From: an uncultured Atribacterota bacterium
GTDB lineage: Bacteria; Atribacterota; Phoenicimicrobiia; Phoenicimicrobiales; Stramentimicrobiaceae
Assembly (NCBI GenBank): GCA_964586485.1
Contig: CAZPII010000001.1
Span: 68,334-109,699, forward strand
Direction: 5' to 3'
DNA: 41,366 nt
Shown in pieces: positions 9,689 through 29,439 of this stretch. Under the pieces are notes generated by a model that ran no database searches, was not told the DNA's origin, and worked only from the letters and a program-made list of their open reading frames with translations. A program made the position numbers and the translations under genes. The first letter of the stretch is position 1. Each line of letters opens with the position of its first letter.

Positions 9689-10446
9689 ATAATTGTGATA
9701 AGGATAAAGTTTTTTATATTATACAAACATTTCTTACTGATAAGGAAAGAAGTCTTATTATTGATTATTATTATGATAATTATACTTCTCTTAGGAAAAT
9801 AGCTTTTATTTATAATATGAACCATACTACGGTAAAATATAATATTGATAAGATAATTAATAGAATTCAAGATTATCTTGATATTTATGACGAGCTAGAG
9901 GATATTTCAAATGATAATTTGTTTTTAATAAATTTAGATTGTTATGATGTTCAGATTTTGTTTTATATGATATTGCTGTATAATAATAAAACTATTAAAA
10001 AATTAATGAGAATAGGCTCTGATCATTTAGCTAAAAGAATTAAAAGAATTAAGAATCTTTTAGAGTTGGATTATCCAGTTATATATAATAAACTATTTTG
10101 TATGAGGAAGAAATTTATTAAGATGGGAGTTGCTTATATGTCTTTAACAGATTATGATTTTCCACTTTATACAATCAGAGATAAGAGCGGTAAGCTTTAT
10201 TCTTTAGAAAAAGAAAAAATATTATTATATAGTGATAAAAGAAAAGTCCTTGAGATCATTAGTGCTTCTAATAAAACATTAAAAAAACAAATTTATGATA
10301 TTTATATGATAGATAGTTTGGCTCATTTTATATCTGTTTTTAATAGGGGTAATGATTCATTTGAAATAGTGAAAGAAAGAGGTGAAAGAATTGTCATTGA
10401 TAATAAAAATATTGGTGAGCTTTCTCGATTTGATACCTCAAGATAA
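9679..10446 (+). CDS. HTH regulator with sigma-70 region-4-like motif(s)
   Basis: LTDKERSLIIDYYYDNYTSLRKIAFIYNMNHTTVKYNIDKIINRIQDYL fits the region 4.2 pattern. A second weaker copy is KTIKKLMRIGSDHLAKRIKRIKNLL. Confidence 0.4.
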   Translation: MLLDNCDKDKVFYIIQTFLTDKERSLIIDYYYDNYTSLRKIAFIYNMNHTTVKYNIDKIINRIQDYLDIYDELEDISNDNLFLINLDCYDVQILFYMILLYNNKTIKKLMRIGSDHLAKRIKRIKNLLELDYPVIYNKLFCMRKKFIKMGVAYMSLTDYDFPLYTIRDKSGKLYSLEKEKILLYSDKRKVLEIISASNKTLKKQIYDIYMIDSLAHFISVFNRGNDSFEIVKERGERIVIDNKNIGELSRFDTSR

Positions 10447-10684
10447 ATTAGAGCATTTTGGATATTATCGATTACAAAAAGATGATATTTTTGTTACTGA
10501 TTCAAAATATTGTTGTCTTTTCAGGAAGAGCGGCAGTAATAATAACATGATTGAAGAAGTAATTATTAGTGACGATTACGGTGGCGTTGTTTCGTTAACT
10601 GTATTCGAAGCACAAAATTTGTTTACTAGATTTTTTAAAGAGATAGAAAGGAAAAGATATAATGTTAGAAAGGTCAATAACTAA
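10382..10684 (+). CDS. hypothetical protein; start codon uncertain
   Basis: Open frame bridging the regulator gene and queD. It overlaps the upstream gene by 65 nt from its GTG start. The first in-frame ATG is only at about 10546. Confidence 0.3.
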   Translation: MKELSLIIKILVSFLDLIPQDKLEHFGYYRLQKDDIFVTDSKYCCLFRKSGSNNNMIEEVIISDDYGGVVSLTVFEAQNLFTRFFKEIERKRYNVRKVNN

Positions 10685-11066
10685 AATATTTAAATTTGAT
10701 TCAGCTCATTATTTGCCTTCCCATGATGGTAAATGCGCTAATTTACACGGCCACACTTATGAACTACATATTACTGTTTGTGGTAAATTATCTGAACATG
10801 GTCCAGAAAAAGGTATGATTATGGATTTTGGGCATTTAAAAAATGTGGTTAATAATGAAATTATTTCAAAACTTGACCATAAAAATTTAAATGAACTTTT
10901 TGAAAATCCAACCGCAGAAGTTATGTGTGATTGGATATATTGTCAGTTAAATTCTTCTTTTGGACTTAATGATTCTTCGCCTTTTGGTCTTAATTTTTAT
11001 TTAAAAAAAATAAGACTTTATGAGACACCTACTTCTTATTGCGAGATTGAGTTTAAACCATGTTAA
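10662..11066 (+). CDS. queD: 6-carboxy-5,6,7,8-tetrahydropterin synthase
   Basis: FKFDSAHYLP...DGKCANLHGHTYEL...LDHKNLNE are QueD/PTPS signature segments. Size is 134 aa. AAGGAA RBS. Confidence 0.85.
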   Translation: MLERSITKIFKFDSAHYLPSHDGKCANLHGHTYELHITVCGKLSEHGPEKGMIMDFGHLKNVVNNEIISKLDHKNLNELFENPTAEVMCDWIYCQLNSSFGLNDSSPFGLNFYLKKIRLYETPTSYCEIEFKPC

Positions 11067-11148: not shown

Positions 11149-11391
11149 ATGTTTAATTTGCAAAGATTAAAAAATGATTTAAATCATTTAGATTTAAAAG
11201 ATACAATTAATTGGTCTAAAAGATTTATTGAAAGACGGGATCTTTATAAATCTTGCGAATTATGTAAAAGAGAAGCGTCTTATATTTTCTCCAGAACATC
11301 GAAAATATCAAATAATACATATGAACATGTTTTTTGTTTTTCCTGTTTAATGTATTATTTTAAAAATGAAGAATTTAAATTAGTTGGGTGA
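11149..11391 (+). CDS. small zinc-ribbon-like protein
   Basis: 80-aa ORF with a GAGG RBS. CELC...CFSC cysteine pairs. Confidence 0.5.
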   Translation: MFNLQRLKNDLNHLDLKDTINWSKRFIERRDLYKSCELCKREASYIFSRTSKISNNTYEHVFCFSCLMYYFKNEEFKLVG

Positions 11392-11393
11392 TT

Positions 11394-12035
11394 ATGAGAA
11401 AAAGTGGTTATATTCAAACTTACACAGGTGATGGAAAAGGTAAGACAACTGCTGCTTTTGGTATGTTATTAAGAGGTGTTTCTGAAAATTGGAAAATATA
11501 TGTAGTTCAATTTATGAAGGGGGATCCATTATTTGATTACGGTGAGATTAGGGCTTGTGAGAAGTTTAAAGATGTAAAAATTTATCAATGCAGGATGGAT
11601 GCAGCTCTTATTATAAAAATGCTTCAAGGTGATGCCGACGCAAAAAAAGAATGTTCTCAAAAAGCTCGTTATGCTTGGTCAAGATGTGTTAATGAAATTT
11701 TAAATAATGAATATGACTTAGTTTTAATGGATGAGATTTTGCCGGTTGTTGATAATAATTTGCTTGAAATTTCTGAATTAATTCATTTTTTAAAAAACAA
11801 ACCGGATTTATTAGAAGTTGTTTTGACTGGAAGAATGAAAAACCCTGAATTAATTAGTAATATCAGGCTTGTTTCGGATTATTGTACAAAAATGGATTGT
11901 TTAGAGCATCCATTTCATAAAAAATGTCCAAATTGTGGTCATATTTTTATAGGCGAAAAGGCAAGTTACATAGGGTGCCCTTATTGTCTTATTGAATTAG
12001 AGCAGGTTTTTGCTAGAAAAGGAATAGAGTTTTGA
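11394..12035 (+). CDS. CobA/CobO/BtuR-family P-loop protein (ATP:cob(I)alamin adenosyltransferase-like) with a zinc-ribbon insertion
   Basis: YTGDGKGKTTAAFG, VVQFMKG, LVLMDEI, EVVLTGR and the terminal ARKGIEF track E. coli BtuR (FTGNGKGKTTAAFG, VVQFIKG, VVLDEL, VIITGR, GIDY) along the whole length. CPNCGHIF...CPYC is inserted before the C-terminal motif. The ORF could also start at GTG 11388. Confidence 0.8.
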   Translation: MRKSGYIQTYTGDGKGKTTAAFGMLLRGVSENWKIYVVQFMKGDPLFDYGEIRACEKFKDVKIYQCRMDAALIIKMLQGDADAKKECSQKARYAWSRCVNEILNNEYDLVLMDEILPVVDNNLLEISELIHFLKNKPDLLEVVLTGRMKNPELISNIRLVSDYCTKMDCLEHPFHKKCPNCGHIFIGEKASYIGCPYCLIELEQVFARKGIEF

Positions 12036-12322: not shown

Positions 12323-12551
12323 ACATACAGATTTTTTACCAAGAGATTTAAGATTATGTATTGGTAAAGAAAAATTAAGATTTAATAATAAAATTATCGA
12401 TACGATAGGACCAGATGTTATTAATAATGAGGTTTTGAAGTTATTAATTTCAGAAATTTATGATGATGGTTTAAATATGGGATTTTATATTAAAGATAAA
12501 TTCAATGAGCTTAAAGGCGAGGGCTTTCAAGAAATGAGAAAAAATGGCTAA
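12303..12551 (+). CDS. hypothetical protein
   Basis: 82-aa ORF with an ATG after AAAGGAAA. Overlaps its neighbours. Confidence 0.45.
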   Translation: MISKINEHTDFLPRDLRLCIGKEKLRFNNKIIDTIGPDVINNEVLKLLISEIYDDGLNMGFYIKDKFNELKGEGFQEMRKNG

Positions 12552-13119
12552 GACAACAAATAATATAGATCTTTATAAGTCTAATCGTGATAATTGGCAA
12601 ACTCCACCATTTATTATTGAATGTTTGTTGAAACATTTTAAAATAAAGCGATTTGATTATGATTTGTGTTGTGATCAATTCAATATCCCTGCAAAACGTT
12701 ACATAACGAAAAACGGAATATATAGGTTAAAATTGAAGCAAAACAGTGTGATTAAGGTTTCTAATAATGATTATTTTAAATCTAATTTCAGTGGTTTGTG
12801 TTATATGAATCCTGTTTTTAAAATTACAGATAAATTTTTAAAAAAGCTGGTAGAAAATAAAAAAGACTGTAATGTTGTAGCTTTATTACCGGTTAGAACC
12901 AACTGTGTTTATTGGCATGATCTTGTTTTTAATAAAGCATCGGCTATATTTTTCTTTAAGAGGAAAATTAATTTTTATATAGATAATCATTCTGTTTGTG
13001 GTGACGGGAATCCTTCGCCTATATGTTTAGCATTTTATAATTTTAAATATGATAAAATAAAAGATATTTATTTTGAGAAACATGAGCTTGACGGAACTAT
13101 GATAAAATTGGAGAATTAA
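12544..13119 (+). CDS. phage Dam-family (N6-adenine DNA methyltransferase-like) protein with an atypical NPVF motif
   Basis: DNWQTPPFII, DYDLCCD, CYMNPVF, ALLPVRTNCVYWH and KINF follow the order of the phage N6A-methyltransferase family (W-x-TP ... D-x-D/A ... NPPY ... LLP-x-RT ... W). The catalytic tetrapeptide reads NPVF. Confidence 0.65.
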   Translation: MAKTTNNIDLYKSNRDNWQTPPFIIECLLKHFKIKRFDYDLCCDQFNIPAKRYITKNGIYRLKLKQNSVIKVSNNDYFKSNFSGLCYMNPVFKITDKFLKKLVENKKDCNVVALLPVRTNCVYWHDLVFNKASAIFFFKRKINFYIDNHSVCGDGNPSPICLAFYNFKYDKIKDIYFEKHELDGTMIKLEN

Positions 13120-13120
13120 T

Positions 13121-13768
13121 GTGTATAAAATTAATGAAATTTTTCAGTCAATACAAGGTGAAGGAAAAAATACCGGGCGTCCTTGTAATTTTATAAGATT
13201 TAGTGGATGTAATCTAAACTGTTCTTTTTGCGACACTGATCATTCTGAAAAATTATTGCTTAGTCCTGAAGCAATAAAAAATCATATTGATTTTTTTAAA
13301 CCAATTGTTTTTACAGGTGGTGAGCCGATTATAGTTGAGAGGCTGGATAAACTTATATCTTATTTAAAAGATTATGGTGGGAAATTATGGCTCGAAACTA
13401 ATGGTGTATTGGAATTTGATTATCAATTATTTAGATATGTCGCTTTGAGCCCTAAGTTTGTTAATGGTGATTTTTTAGTTAGTGAGTCTGCGTTAAAAAA
13501 TTGTGACGAAATTAAAATTGTTATCACTGAAGACTTTTTAACAGATGATAATCTTTTTATAAAAACCAGTATAAAACAAAAAATACTGGATCTTTGTACT
13601 GGGGCTTATAAATCAGGTTATAAAAATAAAGATATATTTTTACAACCTGATTATAGGAATTTAAGTGTTACAATGAACGCTATTAAAAGTCTCATTATGA
13701 CTGAAGGTAATGAATTTTGTTTAATGAGACTTGGAACACAATTGCATAAATATATAGGAGTTAGATAA
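13121..13768 (+). CDS. queE: 7-carboxy-7-deazaguanine synthase (radical SAM)
   Basis: INEIFQSIQGEGKNTGRPCNFIRFSGCNLNCSFCDT is the QueE N-terminal signature with the Cys cluster. GTG start 7 nt after GGAG. Confidence 0.85.
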   Translation: MYKINEIFQSIQGEGKNTGRPCNFIRFSGCNLNCSFCDTDHSEKLLLSPEAIKNHIDFFKPIVFTGGEPIIVERLDKLISYLKDYGGKLWLETNGVLEFDYQLFRYVALSPKFVNGDFLVSESALKNCDEIKIVITEDFLTDDNLFIKTSIKQKILDLCTGAYKSGYKNKDIFLQPDYRNLSVTMNAIKSLIMTEGNEFCLMRLGTQLHKYIGVR

Positions 13769-14343
13769 TGAATATTAATGATATCTCTAAAATAAAAGAC
13801 ATTATTCATAATGATGTATTTAAATGCTTTGGAGAAAAATATTGCTTTAACGAGGAAGAGATAACTAATACTCCTCTAAGGATTGTTAAAATGTTTATTA
13901 ATGAATATTTTAGCGGCCTTAAAGACGACCCGGAAGAAATTTTATCTAAAACATTTAAATCTGATTCAAATGATATAGTGATGCAAAGGGATATACCATT
14001 TTGTTCAGTCTGCGCTCATCATATGGTTCCGTTTCGTGGCTATGCTCATATAGGTTATATTCCTGATAATAATATTGTTGGTCTTTCAAAACTTGGTCGT
14101 CTCGTTGATTGTTTCGCCAGAAGGCCGCAATTGCAGGAAAAGATGACTTATGAAATTGCTGAATCACTTATGCAACATTTAAAACCGTTAGGTTGTATGG
14201 TTATAATTAAAGCAGAGCATCTTTGTGTTACAACTAGAGGCGTAAGGAAGCCCGGCAGTGAAACAGTGACATCTGCTGTTCGTGGCATATTTAAAGATAG
14301 TAGTGGTGTTAGACAAGAATTTTTGGAGTTACTTAAGCTTTGA
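13768..14343 (+). CDS. folE: GTP cyclohydrolase I
   Basis: CSVCAHHMVPFRGYAHIGYIP, VGLSKLGRLVDCFARRPQLQEKMT and EHLCVTTRGVRKPGS are FolE signatures. TAATG coupling to queE. Confidence 0.9.
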   Translation: MNINDISKIKDIIHNDVFKCFGEKYCFNEEEITNTPLRIVKMFINEYFSGLKDDPEEILSKTFKSDSNDIVMQRDIPFCSVCAHHMVPFRGYAHIGYIPDNNIVGLSKLGRLVDCFARRPQLQEKMTYEIAESLMQHLKPLGCMVIIKAEHLCVTTRGVRKPGSETVTSAVRGIFKDSSGVRQEFLELLKL

Positions 14344-14516
14344 TTAAATCGTTAGAAACTTTATTTCATTTTCAATGTCAAAAATGCTCTAAATGGTGGA
14401 GTATTGGTGATTTCCATATTATATATCAATCTAATATTTATTGCCCATTTTGTAAAGAGGGTTTTTATATCAGTTCTGATTATTTAAAGGAGAATAAGAA
14501 TGAATCAAGAGATTAA
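14340..14516 (+). CDS. candidate unannotated small zinc-ribbon ORF (TTG start)
   Basis: Hand translation gives LIKSLETLFHFQCQKCSKWWSIGDFHIIYQSNIYCPFCKEGFYISSDYLKENKNESRD*. GGAG lies about 12 nt upstream of the TTG. It fills the otherwise empty 156-nt gap after folE. No in-frame ATG, so it is absent from the ORF track. Confidence 0.3.
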   Translation: MIKSLETLFHFQCQKCSKWWSIGDFHIIYQSNIYCPFCKEGFYISSDYLKENKNESRD

Positions 14517-14751: not shown

Positions 14752-16173
14752 ATGTGTAATATTTGTGGAGCTTTTAATTTTTCATCTAAAATAACAAAAT
14801 TTAAATTTGATTTAGTTAGAAATATTTTAAATCAAATAGCTTTAGATGGAAATATTAGGGGTTCTGATTCATTTGGCATTTTTGCCGATATTGATAATGA
14901 AAATAAAAATAGTGTTTATAAGGGCGTAGGTCTTTATGATAATGAAATATATAATGAACAGTTTAACAGTGTTGATTTTAGATGTATATTAATTCATAAC
15001 AGGGCTATACCCACAACTGAAATGGTTTTAGGTCAATATTTTAAAACCCAGCCATTTTTTAGCAATGATAAACAGTGTGTTTGTATTCATAATGGTATTG
15101 TTTCTAATGATAAGGATTTGATACAATCATATAATTTAAACCCAGAATGCTCTATAGATTCTGCTGTTATACCAGAGTTTTATTCAAAGTTTTCTAATTT
15201 ATTTTTTAGTTCTAGTTTGGATGGTAGTTTTGCGCTAGCTATTTATGATTATAAGAAATTAGTTTTATTGAGAAATTATAAACCATTAAGGCTATTACGA
15301 AGTGATAAACTTGGTGTTTATATTTTTTCAAGTTATTTTTCTCAATTAACACTTGAAGATCTTATTGATAATTTTGATTTTAAAGAAATAGAATTTCCAC
15401 CATATACGGGTTATATTATTTCAAAAAATGATAAATATTTAGTCCAAAAAAATATTGAACCTATTAAATCTAATCAAGCTGTTGTTTTGTGTTCTGGCGG
15501 TCTTGATTCGGCTGTAACAACTCATATTGCTTGTGAAAAACATGGCGCGCATAATGTTACACTTTTATATTTTGTTTATGATTGTAACTCACAGATACCA
15601 GAGATTAGTGCAGTAAAAAATTTGGCAAACTTTTATGGATGTAAATATAAAAAAATCGATATCAATTTAAAACAATATGATTCTTCATCAAATTTATTTG
15701 TTAAAAATTCAGTTGAACAAGGTCTGTCCGGCGCCGAGACGCCTCATGAATGGGTAGTTGCTAGAAATACTGTTTTTATCAGTAATGCGGCTGCTTATTG
15801 TGATGCAAACAATATAAGTTCTATATATTTAGGATTGAATTTAGAAGAGGCTGGTGTTTATAAAGATAACACCGTAGAGTTTGTAGAACTTTTTAATAAA
15901 TTATTAAAATTTGGCAGTCAAAGGATGCCGGAAATCTATTGCCCGCTTCAATATTCAGTTAAACATGAAATTGTTTCAGTTGGAATAAAATTAGATGTGC
16001 CTTTGCATTTATCTTTTAGTTGTTATGATCCTATTATAACTGAAATGTCTAATACAATATTATGTGAGCCATGCAATAAATGTGGCTCTTGTTATTTAAG
16101 AGAAAAAGCATTTGAAATGAATAATATAACCGATCCTTATATTGTTAAAAGCGCTATTGTAGAAAGGAAATAG
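14752..16173 (+). CDS. queC: class-II (Ntn, Cys2) glutamine amidotransferase fused to 7-cyano-7-deazaguanine synthase (Gat-QueC)
   Basis: N-terminus MCNICGAF plus IHNGIVSND (Ntn amidotransferase). C-terminal half has the PP-loop VVLCSGGLDSAV (nt ~15494-15511) and the QueC zinc cluster SFSCYDP...CEPCNKCGSCYLREKAF. Confidence 0.85.
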   Translation: MCNICGAFNFSSKITKFKFDLVRNILNQIALDGNIRGSDSFGIFADIDNENKNSVYKGVGLYDNEIYNEQFNSVDFRCILIHNRAIPTTEMVLGQYFKTQPFFSNDKQCVCIHNGIVSNDKDLIQSYNLNPECSIDSAVIPEFYSKFSNLFFSSSLDGSFALAIYDYKKLVLLRNYKPLRLLRSDKLGVYIFSSYFSQLTLEDLIDNFDFKEIEFPPYTGYIISKNDKYLVQKNIEPIKSNQAVVLCSGGLDSAVTTHIACEKHGAHNVTLLYFVYDCNSQIPEISAVKNLANFYGCKYKKIDINLKQYDSSSNLFVKNSVEQGLSGAETPHEWVVARNTVFISNAAAYCDANNISSIYLGLNLEEAGVYKDNTVEFVELFNKLLKFGSQRMPEIYCPLQYSVKHEIVSVGIKLDVPLHLSFSCYDPIITEMSNTILCEPCNKCGSCYLREKAFEMNNITDPYIVKSAIVERK

Positions 16174-16178
16174 GTATT

Positions 16179-17219
16179 ATGAAAAGAAAAGAAAAATTAT
16201 ATATAGTAGGTAATTTTTATCATCATAATGATACTATTTTAAAACCTATTTTAAATCAGGCTATTGATAGCGATTATTTTAAAGAAATAGAATGGGTTGA
16301 TCCAAAAAACTATGGATATATTGACGATGATAGGTCTTACTCTTATTGGTCTGATCCTATATTGACATATAATTTTTGGAACGCTCAAATAAAAGGATTG
16401 CTTGGCGTTAATGGAGAGAAACTTGTTGATAATTCTTCTATTTTATTATTAGAGTTTTGGAATCCTTTAATTGAAATAGTCAGATATTTTATTGACGCTA
16501 AAGGTTTGAAGGATATTATATTCTCTGCAATTATGCATAGTAGTTGTAATATACCACTTGATCATGGTCAATACCTCCAAAATTGGGGTTATTTTAGTGA
16601 AGCTAGTTGGCAAAAATGTTTAGATAAAATATTTGTTACCGATTCGCAATCTTATAAATATTGTGAGTTCAATAATGCTATTGTTTCTTATTTACCATAT
16701 GATAGCGACTGGACCCCTTGTGATAAAAAAAATCAGGTTGTTGCTTGTATTTCTAATGACAAGAGAAGTAGTTATATGTTTTTTAGATTTAAAGAATTTG
16801 TTGAAAGAACAGATCCTGATTTAAAATTTATTATTGCTTCTCCAAAAACTCATAATAATTATTTCATTGAATTGCCAGATGGTGTTGAGAGATTATATTT
16901 AGACAGGAAAGAATATAATAAATTATTAGCTGAATCTAAATATTATTTTTGCTGGACTCATTTTGATAATTTTTGTCATGCAACGCTTGAGGCGTTTTTT
17001 AATAGGTGCTCTATGATTTTAAATCCTTATCCTTATCATAATGAAATATATCCTTATAGATATATTTATTCTAATATAGAAGAGGATTGGTGTAATGCTA
17101 TTGGCTCATCTGGTCCGCTTCCTGAAGAAATTGAATCTGTCAAACGTTTATTAGGAAAACCAGAAAAACTTATAGTTGATAATTTATATTACTCAGATTT
17201 AATCAGGAATTATTCGTAA
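16179..17219 (+). CDS. GT-B-fold glycosyltransferase-like protein, paralog 1
   Basis: 346 aa, the same length as the next gene. It shares FWNPLIE, H-S-S, YLPYD and LEAFF motifs with that gene. DNFCHATLEAFFNRCSMIL resembles a degenerate E-x7-E GT4 motif. Confidence 0.5.
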   Translation: MKRKEKLYIVGNFYHHNDTILKPILNQAIDSDYFKEIEWVDPKNYGYIDDDRSYSYWSDPILTYNFWNAQIKGLLGVNGEKLVDNSSILLLEFWNPLIEIVRYFIDAKGLKDIIFSAIMHSSCNIPLDHGQYLQNWGYFSEASWQKCLDKIFVTDSQSYKYCEFNNAIVSYLPYDSDWTPCDKKNQVVACISNDKRSSYMFFRFKEFVERTDPDLKFIIASPKTHNNYFIELPDGVERLYLDRKEYNKLLAESKYYFCWTHFDNFCHATLEAFFNRCSMILNPYPYHNEIYPYRYIYSNIEEDWCNAIGSSGPLPEEIESVKRLLGKPEKLIVDNLYYSDLIRNYS

Positions 17220-17247: not shown

Positions 17248-18288
17248 ATGAGGAAAGTGTATGTTTTGGGTAATCTTGGACTACATGGATCAACAATAGT
17301 TGATAAAATTACTTCTTATTTATCAACTGCCGTTCAGACTGAGGTGAGGTATAGTTGTGAATTTACTGGTGATACTAAACCTTGGAAGCTTCAATCTTTA
17401 GATCCAAATATTATTCTAAATTTTCAACATGTTTTAGAGCTTGATTTTTTTAATTCGCCAAGCACTATATTTTTTCCTGAGTTTTGGAATCCTTTAATTG
17501 AAACAGCAAGGATTTATGTTAATAATTACAAAAAAGATGTAAAATTAGTTGCTTTACACCATGGCTCAAGTCATGTTAATGGTGATCTTATGGCGACTAG
17601 TGTTGGAGAAGATTTATCAAGACATATGGAGTATTCTTGGTTAGCTTGTTTAGATTATTTATTAGTTGGCTCTCGATATGCAAAAGATTGTATTGTTAAA
17701 ATTCATCCTGAGTTTGAAAGTAAAATTATAGTTACTTATTTACCCTTTGATCCGCCAAAATTTATTGAGCGCAAAGAATATGCAGAAATAATTAAACCCA
17801 GTGGAAAAATATTGTTTCCTCACAGATTGTCGCAAGATAAGAATTGGGAAAGTGTTTATAATTTTATAAAATATGTTTTGAAACGTAAGGATCTTTATTT
17901 TACCACTGATGATTTTATTGTTTGTACTCCGATTGAGCCGCGCTATGCAATAAGGGAGATGTTTTCAAAACTTGGTGTTAGTATTAAGGCTTATAGCAGG
18001 AAACAATTTCATAATCAAATGTATTCTTGTCGTTATGTTTATAGTGATGCGTTGCAAGAAACATTTGGTTATTCTGTTTTAGAAGCATTTTTTAGCGGAT
18101 GTATACCGGTTTTAAGTCAACACCCGTTGTATCAAGAATTTTTCGGTTATGATATGTTATTTGAACCTGATAATCATTGTGATATTATTGAAAAAATGAA
18201 AAATTTAACTTATCCTTATATTATTAGAGATAGGTTGTTTAAACTTTTTGATTCAGCAGAGGAAAACATTGCTAAAATTTTGGTGTGA
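17248..18288 (+). CDS. GT-B-fold (GT4-like) glycosyltransferase, paralog 2
   Basis: ETFGYSVLEAFFSGCIPVLSQHPLYQEFF matches the C-terminal E-x7-E nucleotide-sugar-binding motif of GT1/GT4 enzymes. AAGGAGG RBS. Confidence 0.6.
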   Translation: MRKVYVLGNLGLHGSTIVDKITSYLSTAVQTEVRYSCEFTGDTKPWKLQSLDPNIILNFQHVLELDFFNSPSTIFFPEFWNPLIETARIYVNNYKKDVKLVALHHGSSHVNGDLMATSVGEDLSRHMEYSWLACLDYLLVGSRYAKDCIVKIHPEFESKIIVTYLPFDPPKFIERKEYAEIIKPSGKILFPHRLSQDKNWESVYNFIKYVLKRKDLYFTTDDFIVCTPIEPRYAIREMFSKLGVSIKAYSRKQFHNQMYSCRYVYSDALQETFGYSVLEAFFSGCIPVLSQHPLYQEFFGYDMLFEPDNHCDIIEKMKNLTYPYIIRDRLFKLFDSAEENIAKILV

Positions 18289-18291
18289 TTT

Positions 18292-19155
18292 ATGAGAATT
18301 TATTTTAGTAGCGGGGTTATAGAGCGCCACACTTATGCTTTAAAAAAATGCAAAGTTAAAAATGGTCTTTTTAGTTATTTATTTATATTAAAAAGACCAG
18401 AATGCTTTAGTGAAACTGATTTTAAAAGCGTTATGGTTGATTCGGGCGCATATACATTTCTTGCTAATCCTAAAGAGATGGAGAAAAAATTTAAAACTAG
18501 GAATTCAAAAAGAGCATTATATAAATTTGTTGAAGAATATGTTCAATGGCTCTATGATAATACAGATAAATATGAATATGCTGTTGAGGTTGATTTATAT
18601 GATGCTTTTGGTGAAGATTTTATTTTTAGACTACATGAGGAATTTTTTAAACCATTTCAGAGGGATACAGGTAAAGAAGTTATTTTCGTTATGCAGGAAA
18701 GGGGTTTATCAGATTGGAATAAGCTCATTAAAGACCCTGAGATCAAATTTCTTGGTATTGGTAGTACCAATTCTTTATCGGTAAAAAATTATGTTTATTG
18801 GGTTTCAAAATGTATAAAATATAATAAAAAAGTTCATGGGTTTGCTATTACTAATTTAAAATATTTGTTAAGAATTCCTTTTTATAGTGTTGATTCTACA
18901 ACTTGGATGTCAAGTGATAAATATGGTGAACATTTCTTTTTTGATAAAAAAAACATGAAAATAAGAAGAATTTATTCTAGGAAGCCTGAATTACTTATTA
19001 AATATTACCCTCAAATGGCTGAAGATTATTCATTGCAGGAGTTAAAAGTAAAATATAAAAATGATGCCAGACTTTGTTTTGCTATTAAACAATTTCAAGA
19101 GGTTGAAGACTTTTGTACTGATATGTGGAAAAGAAAAGGTATTGATTATGACTGA
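18292..19155 (+). CDS. dpdA: DpdA-family (TGT-like) DNA 7-deazaguanine transglycosylase
   Basis: VMVDSGAYTF (TGT/DpdA DSG motif), KVHGFAIT and FYSVDSTTWMSSDKYG (DS-x-x-W motif). Located in the queD/E/C-folE cluster. Confidence 0.75.
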   Translation: MRIYFSSGVIERHTYALKKCKVKNGLFSYLFILKRPECFSETDFKSVMVDSGAYTFLANPKEMEKKFKTRNSKRALYKFVEEYVQWLYDNTDKYEYAVEVDLYDAFGEDFIFRLHEEFFKPFQRDTGKEVIFVMQERGLSDWNKLIKDPEIKFLGIGSTNSLSVKNYVYWVSKCIKYNKKVHGFAITNLKYLLRIPFYSVDSTTWMSSDKYGEHFFFDKKNMKIRRIYSRKPELLIKYYPQMAEDYSLQELKVKYKNDARLCFAIKQFQEVEDFCTDMWKRKGIDYD

Positions 19156-19485: not shown

Positions 19486-20232
19486 TTGGAAAAACCTATT
19501 AAGCTTTCGGATCGATTATTTATGGGCGTTATTGCGGTTAGTAATATACGGCCAAATAATTGGAATATAAATGTTCAAACCGAAAATACTTTTAATAAAT
19601 TAAAGCTTAGTGTTGATAAGCATGAAATGAATCAGACTTTAACCTTATTAAAAGATTATGATGAGGAAACTGATACTGAATATATTATCTTAAATGGTGA
19701 ACACAGATGGAAGGCAGCTAAGGATTTAGGTCTTGAACGTGTTCCTGCTGTTTTTTATGTCGACATGACGCCTGAAGAGGCTATTCAAATAACTTTAAAA
19801 TCTAATGAACTTAATGGTGATCCTGATATATATAAGTTACCTGAACGTTTGGAGCAAACAGGTTTAACTACGCAACAAATATTAGAAGAGTTTGAATGGA
19901 CTAAATCAGAGTTAGAAAATATATTTAGTATTTCTGATACTATAAATGATGAAGAATTTGTTATGCCTGAAACTGAAATGTCAGATGAGGAAGAAGAGCT
20001 TTTAGATGCTGAAAACAGATCAAAAGTAAGATTATCTTTTATGCTTGATCAGAAACAGTTTAATGAATTTTATGATTTAAAAAGAAAACTTGAATGCCTG
20101 ACTGATGATGATGCTTTTATTAGAATTTGTATGATATGCAAGCAAACTTTGAATAAAAATAAGAACAAAGTTAAAATAAAAGATGATATCGAATCCAATA
20201 ATGAATCTCGCAGGAGAAAAATAATTGAATAA
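19486..20232 (+). CDS. ParB/Srx-fold (ParB N-terminal nuclease-like domain) protein 1
   Basis: IILNGEHRWKAAKDLGLERVPAVF is the ParB GxxR box. Acidic linker (ETEMSDEEEELLD). TTG start after GGAGG. Confidence 0.7.
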   Translation: MEKPIKLSDRLFMGVIAVSNIRPNNWNINVQTENTFNKLKLSVDKHEMNQTLTLLKDYDEETDTEYIILNGEHRWKAAKDLGLERVPAVFYVDMTPEEAIQITLKSNELNGDPDIYKLPERLEQTGLTTQQILEEFEWTKSELENIFSISDTINDEEFVMPETEMSDEEEELLDAENRSKVRLSFMLDQKQFNEFYDLKRKLECLTDDDAFIRICMICKQTLNKNKNKVKIKDDIESNNESRRRKIIE

Positions 20233-20881
20233 AAAAATAGAATCTATTTCTATAAAGAATATTAAACCTAATAATTGGAATCCTAATGGTTTTAGTGAAT
20301 CTAGATTTAAAAAATTAATTAAAAGTATTGAAAAAGATGGCTTAATTAATCCGATTGTTGTTTATGATAATGATAAACAATTTGTTATTGTTGACGGAGA
20401 ACATCGTTTTAAAGCTTTTAAAGCTTTAAATAAGAAAAAGATTGATTGTTATGCCTTGGGCAAATTAGAGACACATGAAGCCCAAAGGCTTAATTATGTT
20501 TTGAATAAATTAAAAGGTGATACAGAAAATGAAGAAAAAGATTTTGAAATTATAACTAATCTTTTAGATAATTATGAATTAGAAGAGTTACTTAAAACCC
20601 TTCCTTATTCTGAGATTGAATTACAACAATATTTAGATGAGAAATTTGAAGATTTTGATGAAGAATCTGTTGCTAATGAATTAGATTCTGAGCCAGATGA
20701 ACCAAATATAAATATGGATAAAGTTGAAGATAAAAAGAATATTGTTAAGTTTTCAATTTCAGATGATGATTATACTGACTTTTGGCTTCAAATAGTTACA
20801 TTGTTTGATTCTGATGTTTCTAAAGATTCTATTTTTGTTGAAATATGTCGATCATATTTAGAGGTTATTGACGAAGGTTAA
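20225..20881 (+). CDS. ParB/Srx-fold protein 2 (paralog)
   Basis: IKNIKPNNWNPN and IVDGEHRFKAFKALNKKKIDCY parallel protein 1 (IRPNNWNIN, LNGEHRWKAAKDLG). Acidic linker. TTG start overlaps the upstream stop. Confidence 0.65.
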   Translation: MNKKIESISIKNIKPNNWNPNGFSESRFKKLIKSIEKDGLINPIVVYDNDKQFVIVDGEHRFKAFKALNKKKIDCYALGKLETHEAQRLNYVLNKLKGDTENEEKDFEIITNLLDNYELEELLKTLPYSEIELQQYLDEKFEDFDEESVANELDSEPDEPNINMDKVEDKKNIVKFSISDDDYTDFWLQIVTLFDSDVSKDSIFVEICRSYLEVIDEG

Positions 20882-27534: not shown

Positions 27535-29439
27535 ATGGAAATAAAATGTATTAAAGATCAATTAGATTTTTATTCTGATTCTTATTATAATAAGTCAATC
27601 AGTGTTGTGTCTGACGCTGATTTCGACATGATCAAAAGTTTATATGAAGAATTATCAGGAGAACCTTATAATCAAGTTGGTTATAGGCCAATTAGTAATG
27701 AATTAAAAAAGGTTTCCAGAGATATTCCAATGCTGTCATTGGACAAGATAAAATCAGAGATAGAAGTAAAGAAATGGTTTAAGAATAAATTTAAAAATGA
27801 AATTTATTTAATGCCAAAATTAGATGGTGTCTCACTTGAACTAAAATATTTATATGGTGTCTTGGTGCAGGGCGTTACGCGCGGCAACGGTTTGGTTGGC
27901 GAAGATGTCACGCATAACGCTTTAAGAATTAAAAGTATTCCTAATTTTTGTAAACGTTTTAGTAAATATTCAACTATTTTTATAAGAGGCGAAGTTTTAA
28001 TAAATAAAGAAAATTTTGCTAAAATAAAATCTAAATCTGATGAATTTGTTTCAGCTAGAAATCTTGCATCTGGGACCTTAAGATTAAAAGATAGTTCAAA
28101 AATTGATGAAAGGTATCCAGAATTTATTGCTTATGAAGTTTTTCAAACTAATAGATATAATTATAATTTTGAAAAACAATTGCTTCTGTTACAAAGAGCC
28201 GGATTTAATGTTATTGATAATAATATGGTGTTTATTAGTGATGACAGGGATTGCGAGAATTTAATTAATAATCTTTTATCTTTTAAAGATTTATCAAATA
28301 AATATGAGATTGATGGTGCTGTTATAAGACTGAATAATAAAAAGGTTTGCAGGAATTTAGGAGAAAATGATTATTCTCCAAAATGGTCTTTTGCTTATAA
28401 ATTTGCAAATCAAAAAGCAAAAACATGTATTAAAGATATAAAATGGCAGGTTTCACATACAGGAAGAATTAATCCTGTAGCTATTTTGAAACCAGTTGAA
28501 GTTTCTGGTGTTTTAATCAAACAAGCTTCATTGCATAATCTTGATTATATAAAGAATTTAAATTTAAAGAAAAACTGCACTGTTATTATAGAAAGAGCAA
28601 ATGATGTTATACCTTATATATGTAAGGCTTTAAAAAATGGTGAAGGCGAATTTGAAATACCCAAAAAATGTCCTTCATGTAATTCTTTTTTAGAAATTGG
28701 TGAAAATAAGCAATTTTTATATTGTAAAAATAAAAAATGTATTTCAATCTTAGAGCAAAAAATATTATTATTTTTTAATATACTTGATGTTAAAGGTGTT
28801 GGCGCTATAGCTGCTAAAAATATTGCAGAAGATTTATCTTTTAATGATTTAAATGAATTATCACTTTTATCTAAAGATGTTGATTATTTTATTAATATAG
28901 TGAAATCAAAAAAGAATGGTGTAAAAATATATAATAATTTACAAAATGTGTTAGAATCATTAAATGATTATCAAGCATTAGCTTTATTAGGTATACCGGG
29001 GATATCAGTAGTTTTAGCAAAAATAATTTTAAAACATTTTGAATTCAATAAACTGATAGAATGCAGTGTTGATGATTTTAATAGTATTAATGGTATTGGT
29101 GATAAACTAAGTTCAGATTTATTTAATAGTTTAAAGGATGAATATATCTTAGAAAGATTTAGTGTTCTTTCATTATATATAAGAAATAATATTTCTAAAA
29201 AGAAAGTTTTAGGAACTAATTTTAATGGTAAGAAATTTTGTATCACAGGCACATTACCGGTTAAAAGGAAAGATTTAATAAAAACAATAGAAGATCACAA
29301 TGGTCAATATACAAATACAGTTTCTGGTCAAACGGATTTTTTAATTACAGCTCGTTTGATTGGTAATAAAATTGAATCAGCTCAAAGACTTGGTGTAAAA
29401 TGTATAACTTATGAAGAATTTTTAGAACTTATTAGTTAA
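27535..29439 (+). CDS. ligA: NAD-dependent DNA ligase
   Basis: Adenylation motif MPKLDGVSLELKY, GVTRGNGLVGEDVT, zinc finger CPSCNSFL...CKNKKC, HhH-rich region, and C-terminal BRCT (GKKFCITGTL). Confidence 0.9.
   Translation: MEIKCIKDQLDFYSDSYYNKSISVVSDADFDMIKSLYEELSGEPYNQVGYRPISNELKKVSRDIPMLSLDKIKSEIEVKKWFKNKFKNEIYLMPKLDGVSLELKYLYGVLVQGVTRGNGLVGEDVTHNALRIKSIPNFCKRFSKYSTIFIRGEVLINKENFAKIKSKSDEFVSARNLASGTLRLKDSSKIDERYPEFIAYEVFQTNRYNYNFEKQLLLLQRAGFNVIDNNMVFISDDRDCENLINNLLSFKDLSNKYEIDGAVIRLNNKKVCRNLGENDYSPKWSFAYKFANQKAKTCIKDIKWQVSHTGRINPVAILKPVEVSGVLIKQASLHNLDYIKNLNLKKNCTVIIERANDVIPYICKALKNGEGEFEIPKKCPSCNSFLEIGENKQFLYCKNKKCISILEQKILLFFNILDVKGVGAIAAKNIAEDLSFNDLNELSLLSKDVDYFINIVKSKKNGVKIYNNLQNVLESLNDYQALALLGIPGISVVLAKIILKHFEFNKLIECSVDDFNSINGIGDKLSSDLFNSLKDEYILERFSVLSLYIRNNISKKKVLGTNFNGKKFCITGTLPVKRKDLIKTIEDHNGQYTNTVSGQTDFLITARLIGNKIESAQRLGVKCITYEEFLELIS

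Follow-up and report, generated by a model that had tools for sequence, protein, structure and literature searches.

The window analyzed here, a 41-kb stretch of contig CAZPII010000001.1 (41,366 nucleotides), is low-GC phage DNA (27.6% G+C) and encodes a P-loop protein of the CobA/CobO/BtuR family within a cluster of 7-deazaguanine genes. The protein belongs to the CobA family of Pfam and is not an established functional cobA equivalog. Ahead of its C-terminal motif it carries an inserted four-cysteine ribbon, which marks a distinct, undescribed branch of CobA proteins seen only in uncultivated phage and metagenomic contigs. Regarding its function, we give about an even chance to a true ATP:corrinoid adenosyltransferase that sustains an adenosylcobalamin (AdoCbl)-dependent enzyme of the host, probably a class II ribonucleotide reductase (RNR). 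The position of the gene next to queD and queE looks like a co-location in one phage lineage, not like a step of the dG+ pathway. Coordinates of the features are given in Table 1.

Family assignment, fold and catalytic residues

Of the two possible start codons, the ATG at position 11394 is probably the true one. It lies 2 nt past the stop codon of an upstream 80-residue open reading frame (ORF), and the protein P0001 of the public collection corresponds to the window gene called from this ATG. The translation contains GDGKGKTTAAFG, VVQFMKG, LMDEI, VVLTGR and CPNCGHIF...CPYC and has GIEF at the C-terminus. The G+C content at third codon positions is 0.21, in line with the adjoining genes, which argues that the CobA-like gene has long been resident in the phage.

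A Pfam search assigned the protein to PF02572 (CobA/CobO/BtuR) with E = 6.4e-44 and a score of 150.6 bits (cut-off 25.7), covering profile positions 2–164 of 172. Both the ORF at 11388–12035 with its BtuR motifs and the membership in the BtuR/CobA family had been put forward in a preliminary description of this DNA; the motifs are present in every detail, and the profile search agrees with the family. Across the catalytic domain the protein is 37–42% identical to cellular CobAs. The best solved relatives by sequence are structures of CobA from Salmonella enterica (4HUT and 1G5R, E ~1e-10). An AlphaFold model from an alignment of 75 sequences has a predicted local distance difference test score (pLDDT) of 92.8 and a predicted template modelling score of 0.86. 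Foldseek placed S. enterica CobA (1G64, 4HUT and 1G5R) at the top of the matches to this model with E = 1.4e-11, TM-scores of 0.67–0.88 (0.75–0.88 when normalised by the target) and a root-mean-square deviation of 2.4 Å across ~170 residues.

Fifteen columns are invariant in an alignment of 75 CobA-family sequences that includes 70 canonical CobAs. The window protein keeps all of them: G12, K15, G16, K17, G23, R27, F40, K42, E51, D113, E114, T145, G146, R147 and H172. We also aligned 16 ribbon-bearing proteins, which are 26–56% identical to the window protein; here G12, K17, G23, R27, Q39, F40, K42, D113, E114, T145, G146, R147 and H172 are invariant. The C-terminal motif is kept in the ribbon-bearing proteins as [RK]-x-G-[IR]-[ED], and the canonical strand-N-D motif FVxxxNPxxxD persists in them as KIVLxxNKxxxD.

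Table 1. Positions of the CobA-like gene, its motifs and the surrounding features (window numbering unless a contig is named).
Feature	Position	Strand	Remarks
Zinc-ribbon CobA-like gene	11394..12035	+	213 aa from ATG; alternative GTG start at 11388 gives 215 aa
P-loop GDGKGKTT, residues 12–19	11427..11450	+	G12, K15, G16, K17 invariant in 75 CobA-family sequences; G12, K17 in 16 ribbon-bearing sequences
Walker-B-like LMDE (D113, E114)	11724..11735	+	D113, E114 invariant in the 75- and 16-sequence alignments
LTGR motif (T145, G146, R147)	11823..11834	+	invariant in the 75- and 16-sequence alignments
Inserted ribbon C178-P-N-C181 ... C195-P-Y-C198	11925..11987	+	read from the sequence; absent in canonical CobAs
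C-terminal motif ARKGIEF	12012..12032	+	downstream of the insertion; R208, G210, I211, E212 conserved in at least 89% of canonical CobAs
QueD (6-pyruvoyl-tetrahydropterin synthase family)	10662..11066	+	PF01242, E = 3e-34
QueE (radical SAM)	13121..13768	+	PF04055; best NCBIfam matches are QueE models
FolE (GTP cyclohydrolase I)	13768..14343	+	PF01227, E = 1e-62
Gat-QueC fusion	14752..16173	+	GATase_6/7 and QueC domains
DpdA-type DNA transglycosylase, 287 aa	18292..19155	+	phrog_887, queuine tRNA-ribosyltransferase, E = 1e-20
Two ParB_N-domain proteins	19486..20232 and 20225..20881	+	PF02195 and GmrSD_N matches
PF18909 proteins in other contigs	L100 12253-12684; L101 9104-9637; L097 7570-8013; L099 8076-8399; L138 13585-14031		

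The four-cysteine ribbon

The insertion comprises ~27 residues and takes the place of the short KH(P/Y)–(A)RKGIE(F/Y) loop of canonical CobAs of 170–180 residues. Short canonical CobAs end in ...KHP(Y/F)xxGxxARKGIEF; the window protein ends in ...EHPFHKK-CPNC-GHIFIGEKASYIG-CPYC-LIELEQVF-ARKGIEF. All 16 aligned ribbon-bearing homologues have C178, C181 and C195, and a single one of them lacks C198. The CxxC knuckles also occur in members from IMG/VR and in P0275, P0279, P0288 and P0293. This conservation over divergent homologues indicates that the insertion is a real, if so far predicted, metal-binding motif. In the AlphaFold model the ribbon region has a pLDDT of ~89–93. Sequence and homologue alignment agree with the zinc ribbon before the C-terminal segment that had been described previously. 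A weak match to the rubredoxin-like family PF21349 (RUBY_RBDX, E = 0.004) remains sub-threshold with 17 bits against a cut-off of 26.5. Throughout the wider subfamily the ribbon is conserved and rich in aromatic residues ([FYW]x[FY][RH]xx[FY]C), with a spacer of 10–13 residues separating the cysteine pairs (13 in the window protein).

Extent of the ribbon-bearing subfamily

The closest relatives with a ribbon are P0002 (56% identity) and P0003 (54%), and the ribbon is also present in a distant clade with P0009 and P0010 (32–34% identity). A profile search of 1.84 billion cluster representatives yielded roughly a dozen clusters at 50% identity whose matches extend across the ribbon as far as the C-terminus. 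The search of the 90%-identity collection gave 30 clusters with at least 207 bits, and all those inspected carry the ribbon. Canonical CobAs reached at most 176 bits in the same search, leaving a gap below the ribbon-bearing clusters. With the ribbon segment alone as the query only two fragments were matched. The subfamily is diverse, with a mean Kimura distance of 1.29. In a neighbour-joining analysis restricted to columns shared with canonical CobAs, and thus excluding the ribbon columns, the ribbon-bearing sequences form one bipartition with moderate support (109 of 200 bootstraps).

All members of the subfamily come from metagenomic contigs or viral contigs of IMG/VR, where the loci have 30–37% G+C. 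No ribbon-bearing member was detected among 50,697 INPHARED records of deposited phages. A pattern scan of 185,579 species genomes with a 5-sequence alignment returned only canonical CobAs without a ribbon, and no family of PHROGs matches the window protein. In one 115-kb viral contig (L102, positions 10001-10574) the CobA-like match falls into two parts that lie in different reading frames, as would be expected of a frameshift, pseudogene or assembly error.

Genomic context of the gene

In the window the gene order is QueD, an 80-residue cysteine-rich ORF, the CobA-like gene, two small ORFs, a Dam-like methylase, QueE and FolE, followed by two further small ORFs, Gat-QueC, two glycosyltransferase (GT)-like paralogues of 346 residues, DpdA and the two ParB_N proteins. 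This is the deazapurine cluster of the preliminary description, with QueD upstream of the CobA-like gene and QueE, FolE, Gat-QueC and DpdA downstream. According to Pfam the window also encodes the C-terminal part of DNA polymerase III (Pol III) alpha, RecA, SbcD/SbcC, a portal protein and an NAD-dependent ligase.

We sampled about 15 phage lineages with a ribbon-bearing protein and viewed their neighbourhoods within 6–10 kb of the gene, with canonical cellular CobA loci from a metagenome scan as the negative control for linkage to que genes. Only the window and its syntenic sister (L001–L003, protein P0003) have que or dpdA genes nearby. Recurrent association with deazapurine genes had been set as a test in advance, and in these lineages the association does not recur beyond this pair. 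The order in L001–L003 is QueD, CobA-like gene, 45-residue ORF, QueE, FolE, 69-residue ORF, Gat-QueC ... GT-like gene, DpdA, ParB and ParB. It mirrors the window from Pol III alpha to ParB and is syntenic over 20 kb. Therefore the two loci count as one inherited arrangement rather than as an independent recurrence. No que gene is present on the 2.2-kb contig of P0002, the closest homologue, and tblastn searches with FolE, QueD, QueE, Gat-QueC and DpdA of the window found nothing in the other ribbon-bearing loci (~12 lineages).

The setting shared by the subfamily is a block of replication, nucleotide-supply and DNA-modification genes, not 7-deazaguanine synthesis. The CobA-like gene comes after RecA, SbcC and SbcD in L010 and L093. 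In L097–L100 it follows DnaB and is succeeded by an ORF of ~148 residues, a 5'-3' exonuclease and a MazZ-like PF18909 pyrophosphohydrolase. The order in L138 is single-stranded DNA-binding protein, DnaB, CobA-like gene, 64-residue ORF, thioredoxin, flap endonuclease (FEN) and PF18909; in L101 it is PolA, CobA-like gene, FEN, PF18909 and UvrA. Ligase, Pol III delta and delta', ThyX and MerR precede the gene in L096/L134, and ThyX, thymidylate kinase, DnaB, SbcD, a methylase and SbcC follow it in L136. Finally, L140/L141 have DNA methylases, a GT2 protein, the CobA-like gene overlapping a GT8 gene, and UvrD. A dCMP deaminase is also among the nucleotide-supply neighbours across the lineages.

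Search for a B12-dependent client

The survey for B12 genes spanned the 41-kb window from the 109.7-kb source contig, most of the L100 contig and 6–10 kb around the gene in ~13 other lineages. Its outcome speaks against a role of the protein in B12 metabolism. Pfam searches of the ORFs in the 41-kb window found no RNR, B12-binding domain, mutase or cob/cbi/btu gene. A B12-dependent enzyme that would explain the gene, as considered in the preliminary description, is thus not encoded there. Batch Pfam scans of 105 neighbouring ORFs from nine lineages gave no RNR or B12 family. The same holds for 46 further ORFs that cover ~91% of the 40.5-kb L100 contig and 21 kb of the L096 contig, and for the precomputed Pfam labels of five more lineages. 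Neither a cobalamin riboswitch nor a preQ1 riboswitch was detected in the window or in 12 related loci. Since no B12-dependent enzyme or RNR is found in the visible phage DNA, the step that involves a host AdoCbl enzyme is purely inferred.

Proposed function and alternatives

Based on the conserved residues and the gene context we propose the following role for the CobA-like protein. It would bind MgATP in the manner of CobA and, releasing triphosphate, pass the 5'-deoxyadenosyl group on to a reduced corrinoid. During infection, host corrinoid would be converted to adenosylcobalamin in this way, or inactivated cofactor would be re-adenosylated. The client would be an AdoCbl-dependent enzyme of the host, for which the context makes a class II RNR the most plausible choice. 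The KHP and RKGIEF motifs, between which the ribbon is inserted, line the ATP-ribose side of the active-site pocket in the Salmonella CobA structures. The ribbon would then be located at the rim of the ATP/corrinoid pocket. There it could act as a lid, as a docking surface for the client or a reductant, or as a rubredoxin-like entry point for electrons in the Co(II) to Co(I) step.

Beyond the P-loop, this very divergent subfamily keeps the motifs that are specific to CobA (R27, QFxKG, TGR, KH and xGIE), and conserved chemistry is therefore the most economical interpretation. The chemistry of the ribbon-bearing proteins is likely to be conventional. Genes of nucleotide metabolism or replication surround the gene in every lineage with enough DNA, and there is a precedent for a phage cobO gene in cyanophage P-SS2. 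A class II RNR is suggested as the client because of the context of deoxynucleoside triphosphate (dNTP) supply, the lack of an RNR in the visible phage DNA and the thioredoxin encoded two genes downstream of the CobA-like gene in L138. Thioredoxin is the usual reductant of ribonucleotide reductases.

Besides the missing client, several properties of the protein itself weigh against an adenosyltransferase. Its scores remain below the NCBIfam equivalog and subfamily cut-offs for cobA (TIGR00708, 108.3 bits against 167.75; NF004637, 126.2 against 185), as do those of the subfamily member P0128. The five nearest members with a ribbon, from the window clade and clade 2, deviate at several positions conserved in at least 89% of canonical CobAs, namely G67 to R/H, N116 to L, A149 to K/W, A161 to S, V164 to C/F/M and E166 to K/D. 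In some members of the subfamily the first lysine or a glycine of the P-loop is degraded (GKNK, GKYK, GSGK and GCGK).

These features would also fit a neofunctionalised enzyme that has kept the ATP site of the CobA fold and serves the DNA or nucleotide metabolism of the phage with an acceptor or partner other than a corrinoid. This is the main alternative, which we regard as less likely than not. Examples would be the transfer of an adenosyl or nucleotidyl group to a nucleoside, a nucleotide or a DNA-modification intermediate, or the phosphorylation of such an acceptor, with the zinc ribbon as an acceptor-binding lid like the zinc domain of TK1-type thymidine kinases. Such a function would explain the presence of the gene among genes for replication, dNTP supply and DNA modification and never beside a B12-dependent gene. 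It is consistent with a subfamily set apart by its bit scores and by a single bipartition even without the ribbon columns, with the score below the cobA equivalog cut-off, with the shared replacements at near-invariant positions in the five closest members and with the conserved, aromatic-rich ribbon. The neighbours, among them ThyX with Tmk, PF18909 and glycosyltransferases or methylases, agree with it as well. After CobA, Foldseek turns to TK1-type thymidine kinases with a P-loop and a four-cysteine zinc domain (E = 2e-5 to 5e-4), but the TM-scores are only 0.38–0.54, the cysteine spacer of 10–13 residues appears too short for the TK1 lasso and Pfam gave no thymidine kinase match. Moreover, the window protein keeps all residues that are invariant in canonical CobAs, including those outside the P-loop, and the data name no alternative acceptor. 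CobA binds ATP in an inverted orientation that suits attack at C5' and not phosphoryl transfer, which counts against the phosphorylation of a new acceptor in particular.

The protein might also only descend from CobA and serve the replisome as a RecA-like ATPase that is non-enzymatic or accessory, for instance as a helicase loader or a recombination mediator; in our view this is very improbable. The gene does directly follow DnaB in four lineages (L097–L100 and L138) and PolA in L101, but not every lineage shows this adjacency to DnaB. The CobA fold is RecA-like, and FlaH, KaiC and T7 gp4 are among the Foldseek matches; the conserved catalytic motifs beyond the P-loop, however, are specific to CobA. 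Zinc ribbons are common in replication proteins. The isoelectric points of the subfamily (5.2–9.5) are not consistently basic and are uninformative on DNA binding.

The location of the gene between queD and queE leads to one more explanation, a helper of the deazapurine pathway specific to one lineage, which would be either an ATP-dependent partner of DpdA similar to DpdB or a helper of QueE. We consider this unlikely. The arrangement is present in two phages whose CobA-like proteins are only ~54% identical, but the 20-kb synteny traces both back to one evolutionary event, and neither P0002 on its short contig nor the ~12 other lineages have que genes nearby. In L001–L003 the genes abut, with queD ending at 10001, where the CobA-like gene starts, and the latter ending at 10645, where the next ORF starts. 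No enzyme of the preQ0/G+ route is known to require adenosylcobalamin, given the established biochemistry of FolE, QueD, QueE and QueC, and the earlier remark that a corrinoid role is not obvious from the cluster is correct in this respect. The cellular loci L039 and L065, in which an NrdG/QueE-like radical SAM gene comes after the gene of a canonical CobA, would be compatible with a QueE helper. An ATPase partner is indeed required by bacterial DpdA (PMC10164549, PMC10516641). DpdB, however, is a nucleoside triphosphatase (NTPase) of the ParB fold with a DGQQR motif and a helical C-terminal domain (PMC10164549), and two ParB_N proteins are already encoded downstream of dpdA. The published phage dG+ clusters consist only of FolE, QueD, QueE, Gat-QueC and DpdA, as in phage 9g with its dG+ DNA, and the paper describing them does not mention cobalamin or CobA (PMC10516641). 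Likewise, a literature search for CobA/BtuR linked to phage 7-deazaguanine clusters found none. The DpdB-like role suggested in the preliminary description thus disagrees with the CobA/RecA-like fold and with PADLOC, in which the protein matches no model, and its other suggestion, a transferase acting on the deazapurine base, is not supported.

The two ParB_N proteins directly after dpdA contain the ParB NTP motif GxxRxxA (GEHRWKA and GEHRFKA), both in the window and in L001. At the level of the fold they would be better candidates for a DpdB-type protein than the CobA-like protein. PADLOC matched them only to ParB domains of methylase models and not to a DpdB model, and none of the genes in the cluster matched a DpdA or DpdB model. 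Because no DpdB model was matched, we can only infer a helper role for this pair.

Comparison with known systems

The window protein has the same fold as S. enterica CobA and Escherichia coli BtuR and shares with them the P-loop GxGKGKTT, QFxKG, LDE, TGR, KH and xGI[ED][FY]. It lacks the N-terminal extension of ~25 residues of enterobacterial CobAs; the alignment starts at chain residue 22–27, as for short archaeal and bacterial forms. Differences from Salmonella CobA are the ~27-residue insertion with four cysteines ahead of the C-terminal motif and a remodelled loop at the position of the GFTWE segment (F91/W93). Unlike CobA/BtuR, the window gene has no cob/cbi/B12 genomic context, and its product falls below the TIGR00708 cut-off.

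Among phage proteins, CobO of cyanophage P-SS2, the one annotated precedent that we came across, also belongs to PF02572 and is 31% identical to the window protein across the catalytic domain. It has 344 residues and no ribbon, and in Foldseek the window protein matches it over only about half its length (TM-score of 0.41 when normalised by the target). The P-SS2 gene is located among small hypothetical genes after the head genes, outside the replication module.

TK1-type thymidine kinases, which are typical of phage nucleotide-metabolism modules, are the next structural matches in Foldseek after CobA and FlaH. They are similar in size (~190–215 residues) and in architecture, in which a RecA-like P-loop domain at the N-terminus precedes a four-cysteine metal site at the C-terminus. 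The window protein differs from them by a short cysteine spacer, the apparent lack of a lasso loop and the retained CobA-specific motifs. No profile match to the TK1 family PF00265 was found; Pfam gave only PF02572 and the weak PF21349 match.

DpdB resembles the window protein in that it binds nucleotides and is encoded near a DpdA-type transglycosylase. In contrast to the ParB fold and DGQQR motif of DpdB, the window protein adopts the CobA fold; it matches nothing in PADLOC and is not recurrently linked to dpdA. The window reproduces FolE, QueD, QueE, Gat-QueC and DpdA of the 9g-type dG+ cluster and adds to the published clusters of this type the CobA-like gene, the Dam-like methylase, two GT-like paralogues and two ParB-like genes.

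Should the protein prove to be a functional adenosyltransferase, diverse uncultivated low-GC phages would bring along their own step of coenzyme-B12 activation. The likeliest purpose would be to keep the B12-dependent ribonucleotide reductase of the host running. The gene would then be a new kind of auxiliary metabolic gene for dNTP supply, and the built-in metal module might free the enzyme from host reductants. If it is not an adenosyltransferase, the CobA fold would have been recruited to a new reaction in phage DNA metabolism, the second known for this fold. For annotation, the gene should not be counted among those for 7-deazaguanine synthesis, nor should its automatic label, 'cob(I)alamin adenosyltransferase', be taken as established.

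Further features of the window and related loci

The 80-residue cysteine-rich ORF (CELC...CFSC) at 11149..11391 on the plus strand, directly upstream of the ATG of the CobA-like gene, has no family match in Pfam, PHROGs or PADLOC. A different cysteine-rich ORF of 80 residues overlaps the start of the CobA-like gene in clade 2 (L007–L010; L007 630-872, L010 9756-9998). By eye there is no obvious similarity between the two. We rejected the ORF as a conserved small partner since its sequence is not conserved and it is missing in L001.

A Dam-like N6-adenine methyltransferase (12544-13119; PF05869, E = 2e-12; orphan methyltransferase in PADLOC) separates the CobA-like gene from queE and is missing at the equivalent place in L001. 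Between folE and gat-queC lies a 58-residue ORF (14340-14516) with two CxxC pairs (CQKC...CPFC); the 69-residue ORF occupies this slot in L001. The two 346-residue paralogues between Gat-QueC and DpdA (16179-17219 and 17248-18288) cluster together by BLASTP. The second of them has weak glycosyltransferase matches (Glycos_transf_1, E = 0.0045; phrog_2170, E = 2e-4), and L001 has a single GT-like gene of 334 residues just ahead of dpdA. This may point to additional modification with sugars, either on the deazaguanine or on the DNA. The DpdA homologue of L001 (18159-19547; also in L002 and L003) comprises 462 residues and is interrupted by an intein (PF14890); in tblastn the 287-residue DpdA of the window aligns to it as two pieces that flank the intein. 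The NAD-dependent DNA ligase of the window (27535-29439) is full-length with adenylation, OB, HhH and BRCT domains and directly follows the portal gene, outside the replication block.

In two cellular metagenome contigs (L039 9995-11132 and L065 ~1511-2806) a canonical CobA of 171 residues is followed within 5 nt by the NrdG/QueE-like gene. The latter encodes a radical-SAM activase of 205 residues with a GCNFRCGFCHN motif, and the pairing is rare among ~100 canonical loci. The PF18909 proteins, which have a MazZ-like dATP/dGTP diphosphohydrolase domain, are encoded 2–4 kb downstream of the ribbon-bearing gene, after the 5'-3' exonuclease, in five related contigs (Table 1). An array of eight tRNAs is located ~3 kb downstream of the ribbon-bearing gene in L093 (13180-14114), a phage of 97–170 kb. 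Contig L140 contains two genes of the IS605 OrfB/TnpB type (Cas12f1-like_TNB) at 1132-2295 and 17801-19120, the second of which includes a RAGATH-18 RNA motif (18981-19055).

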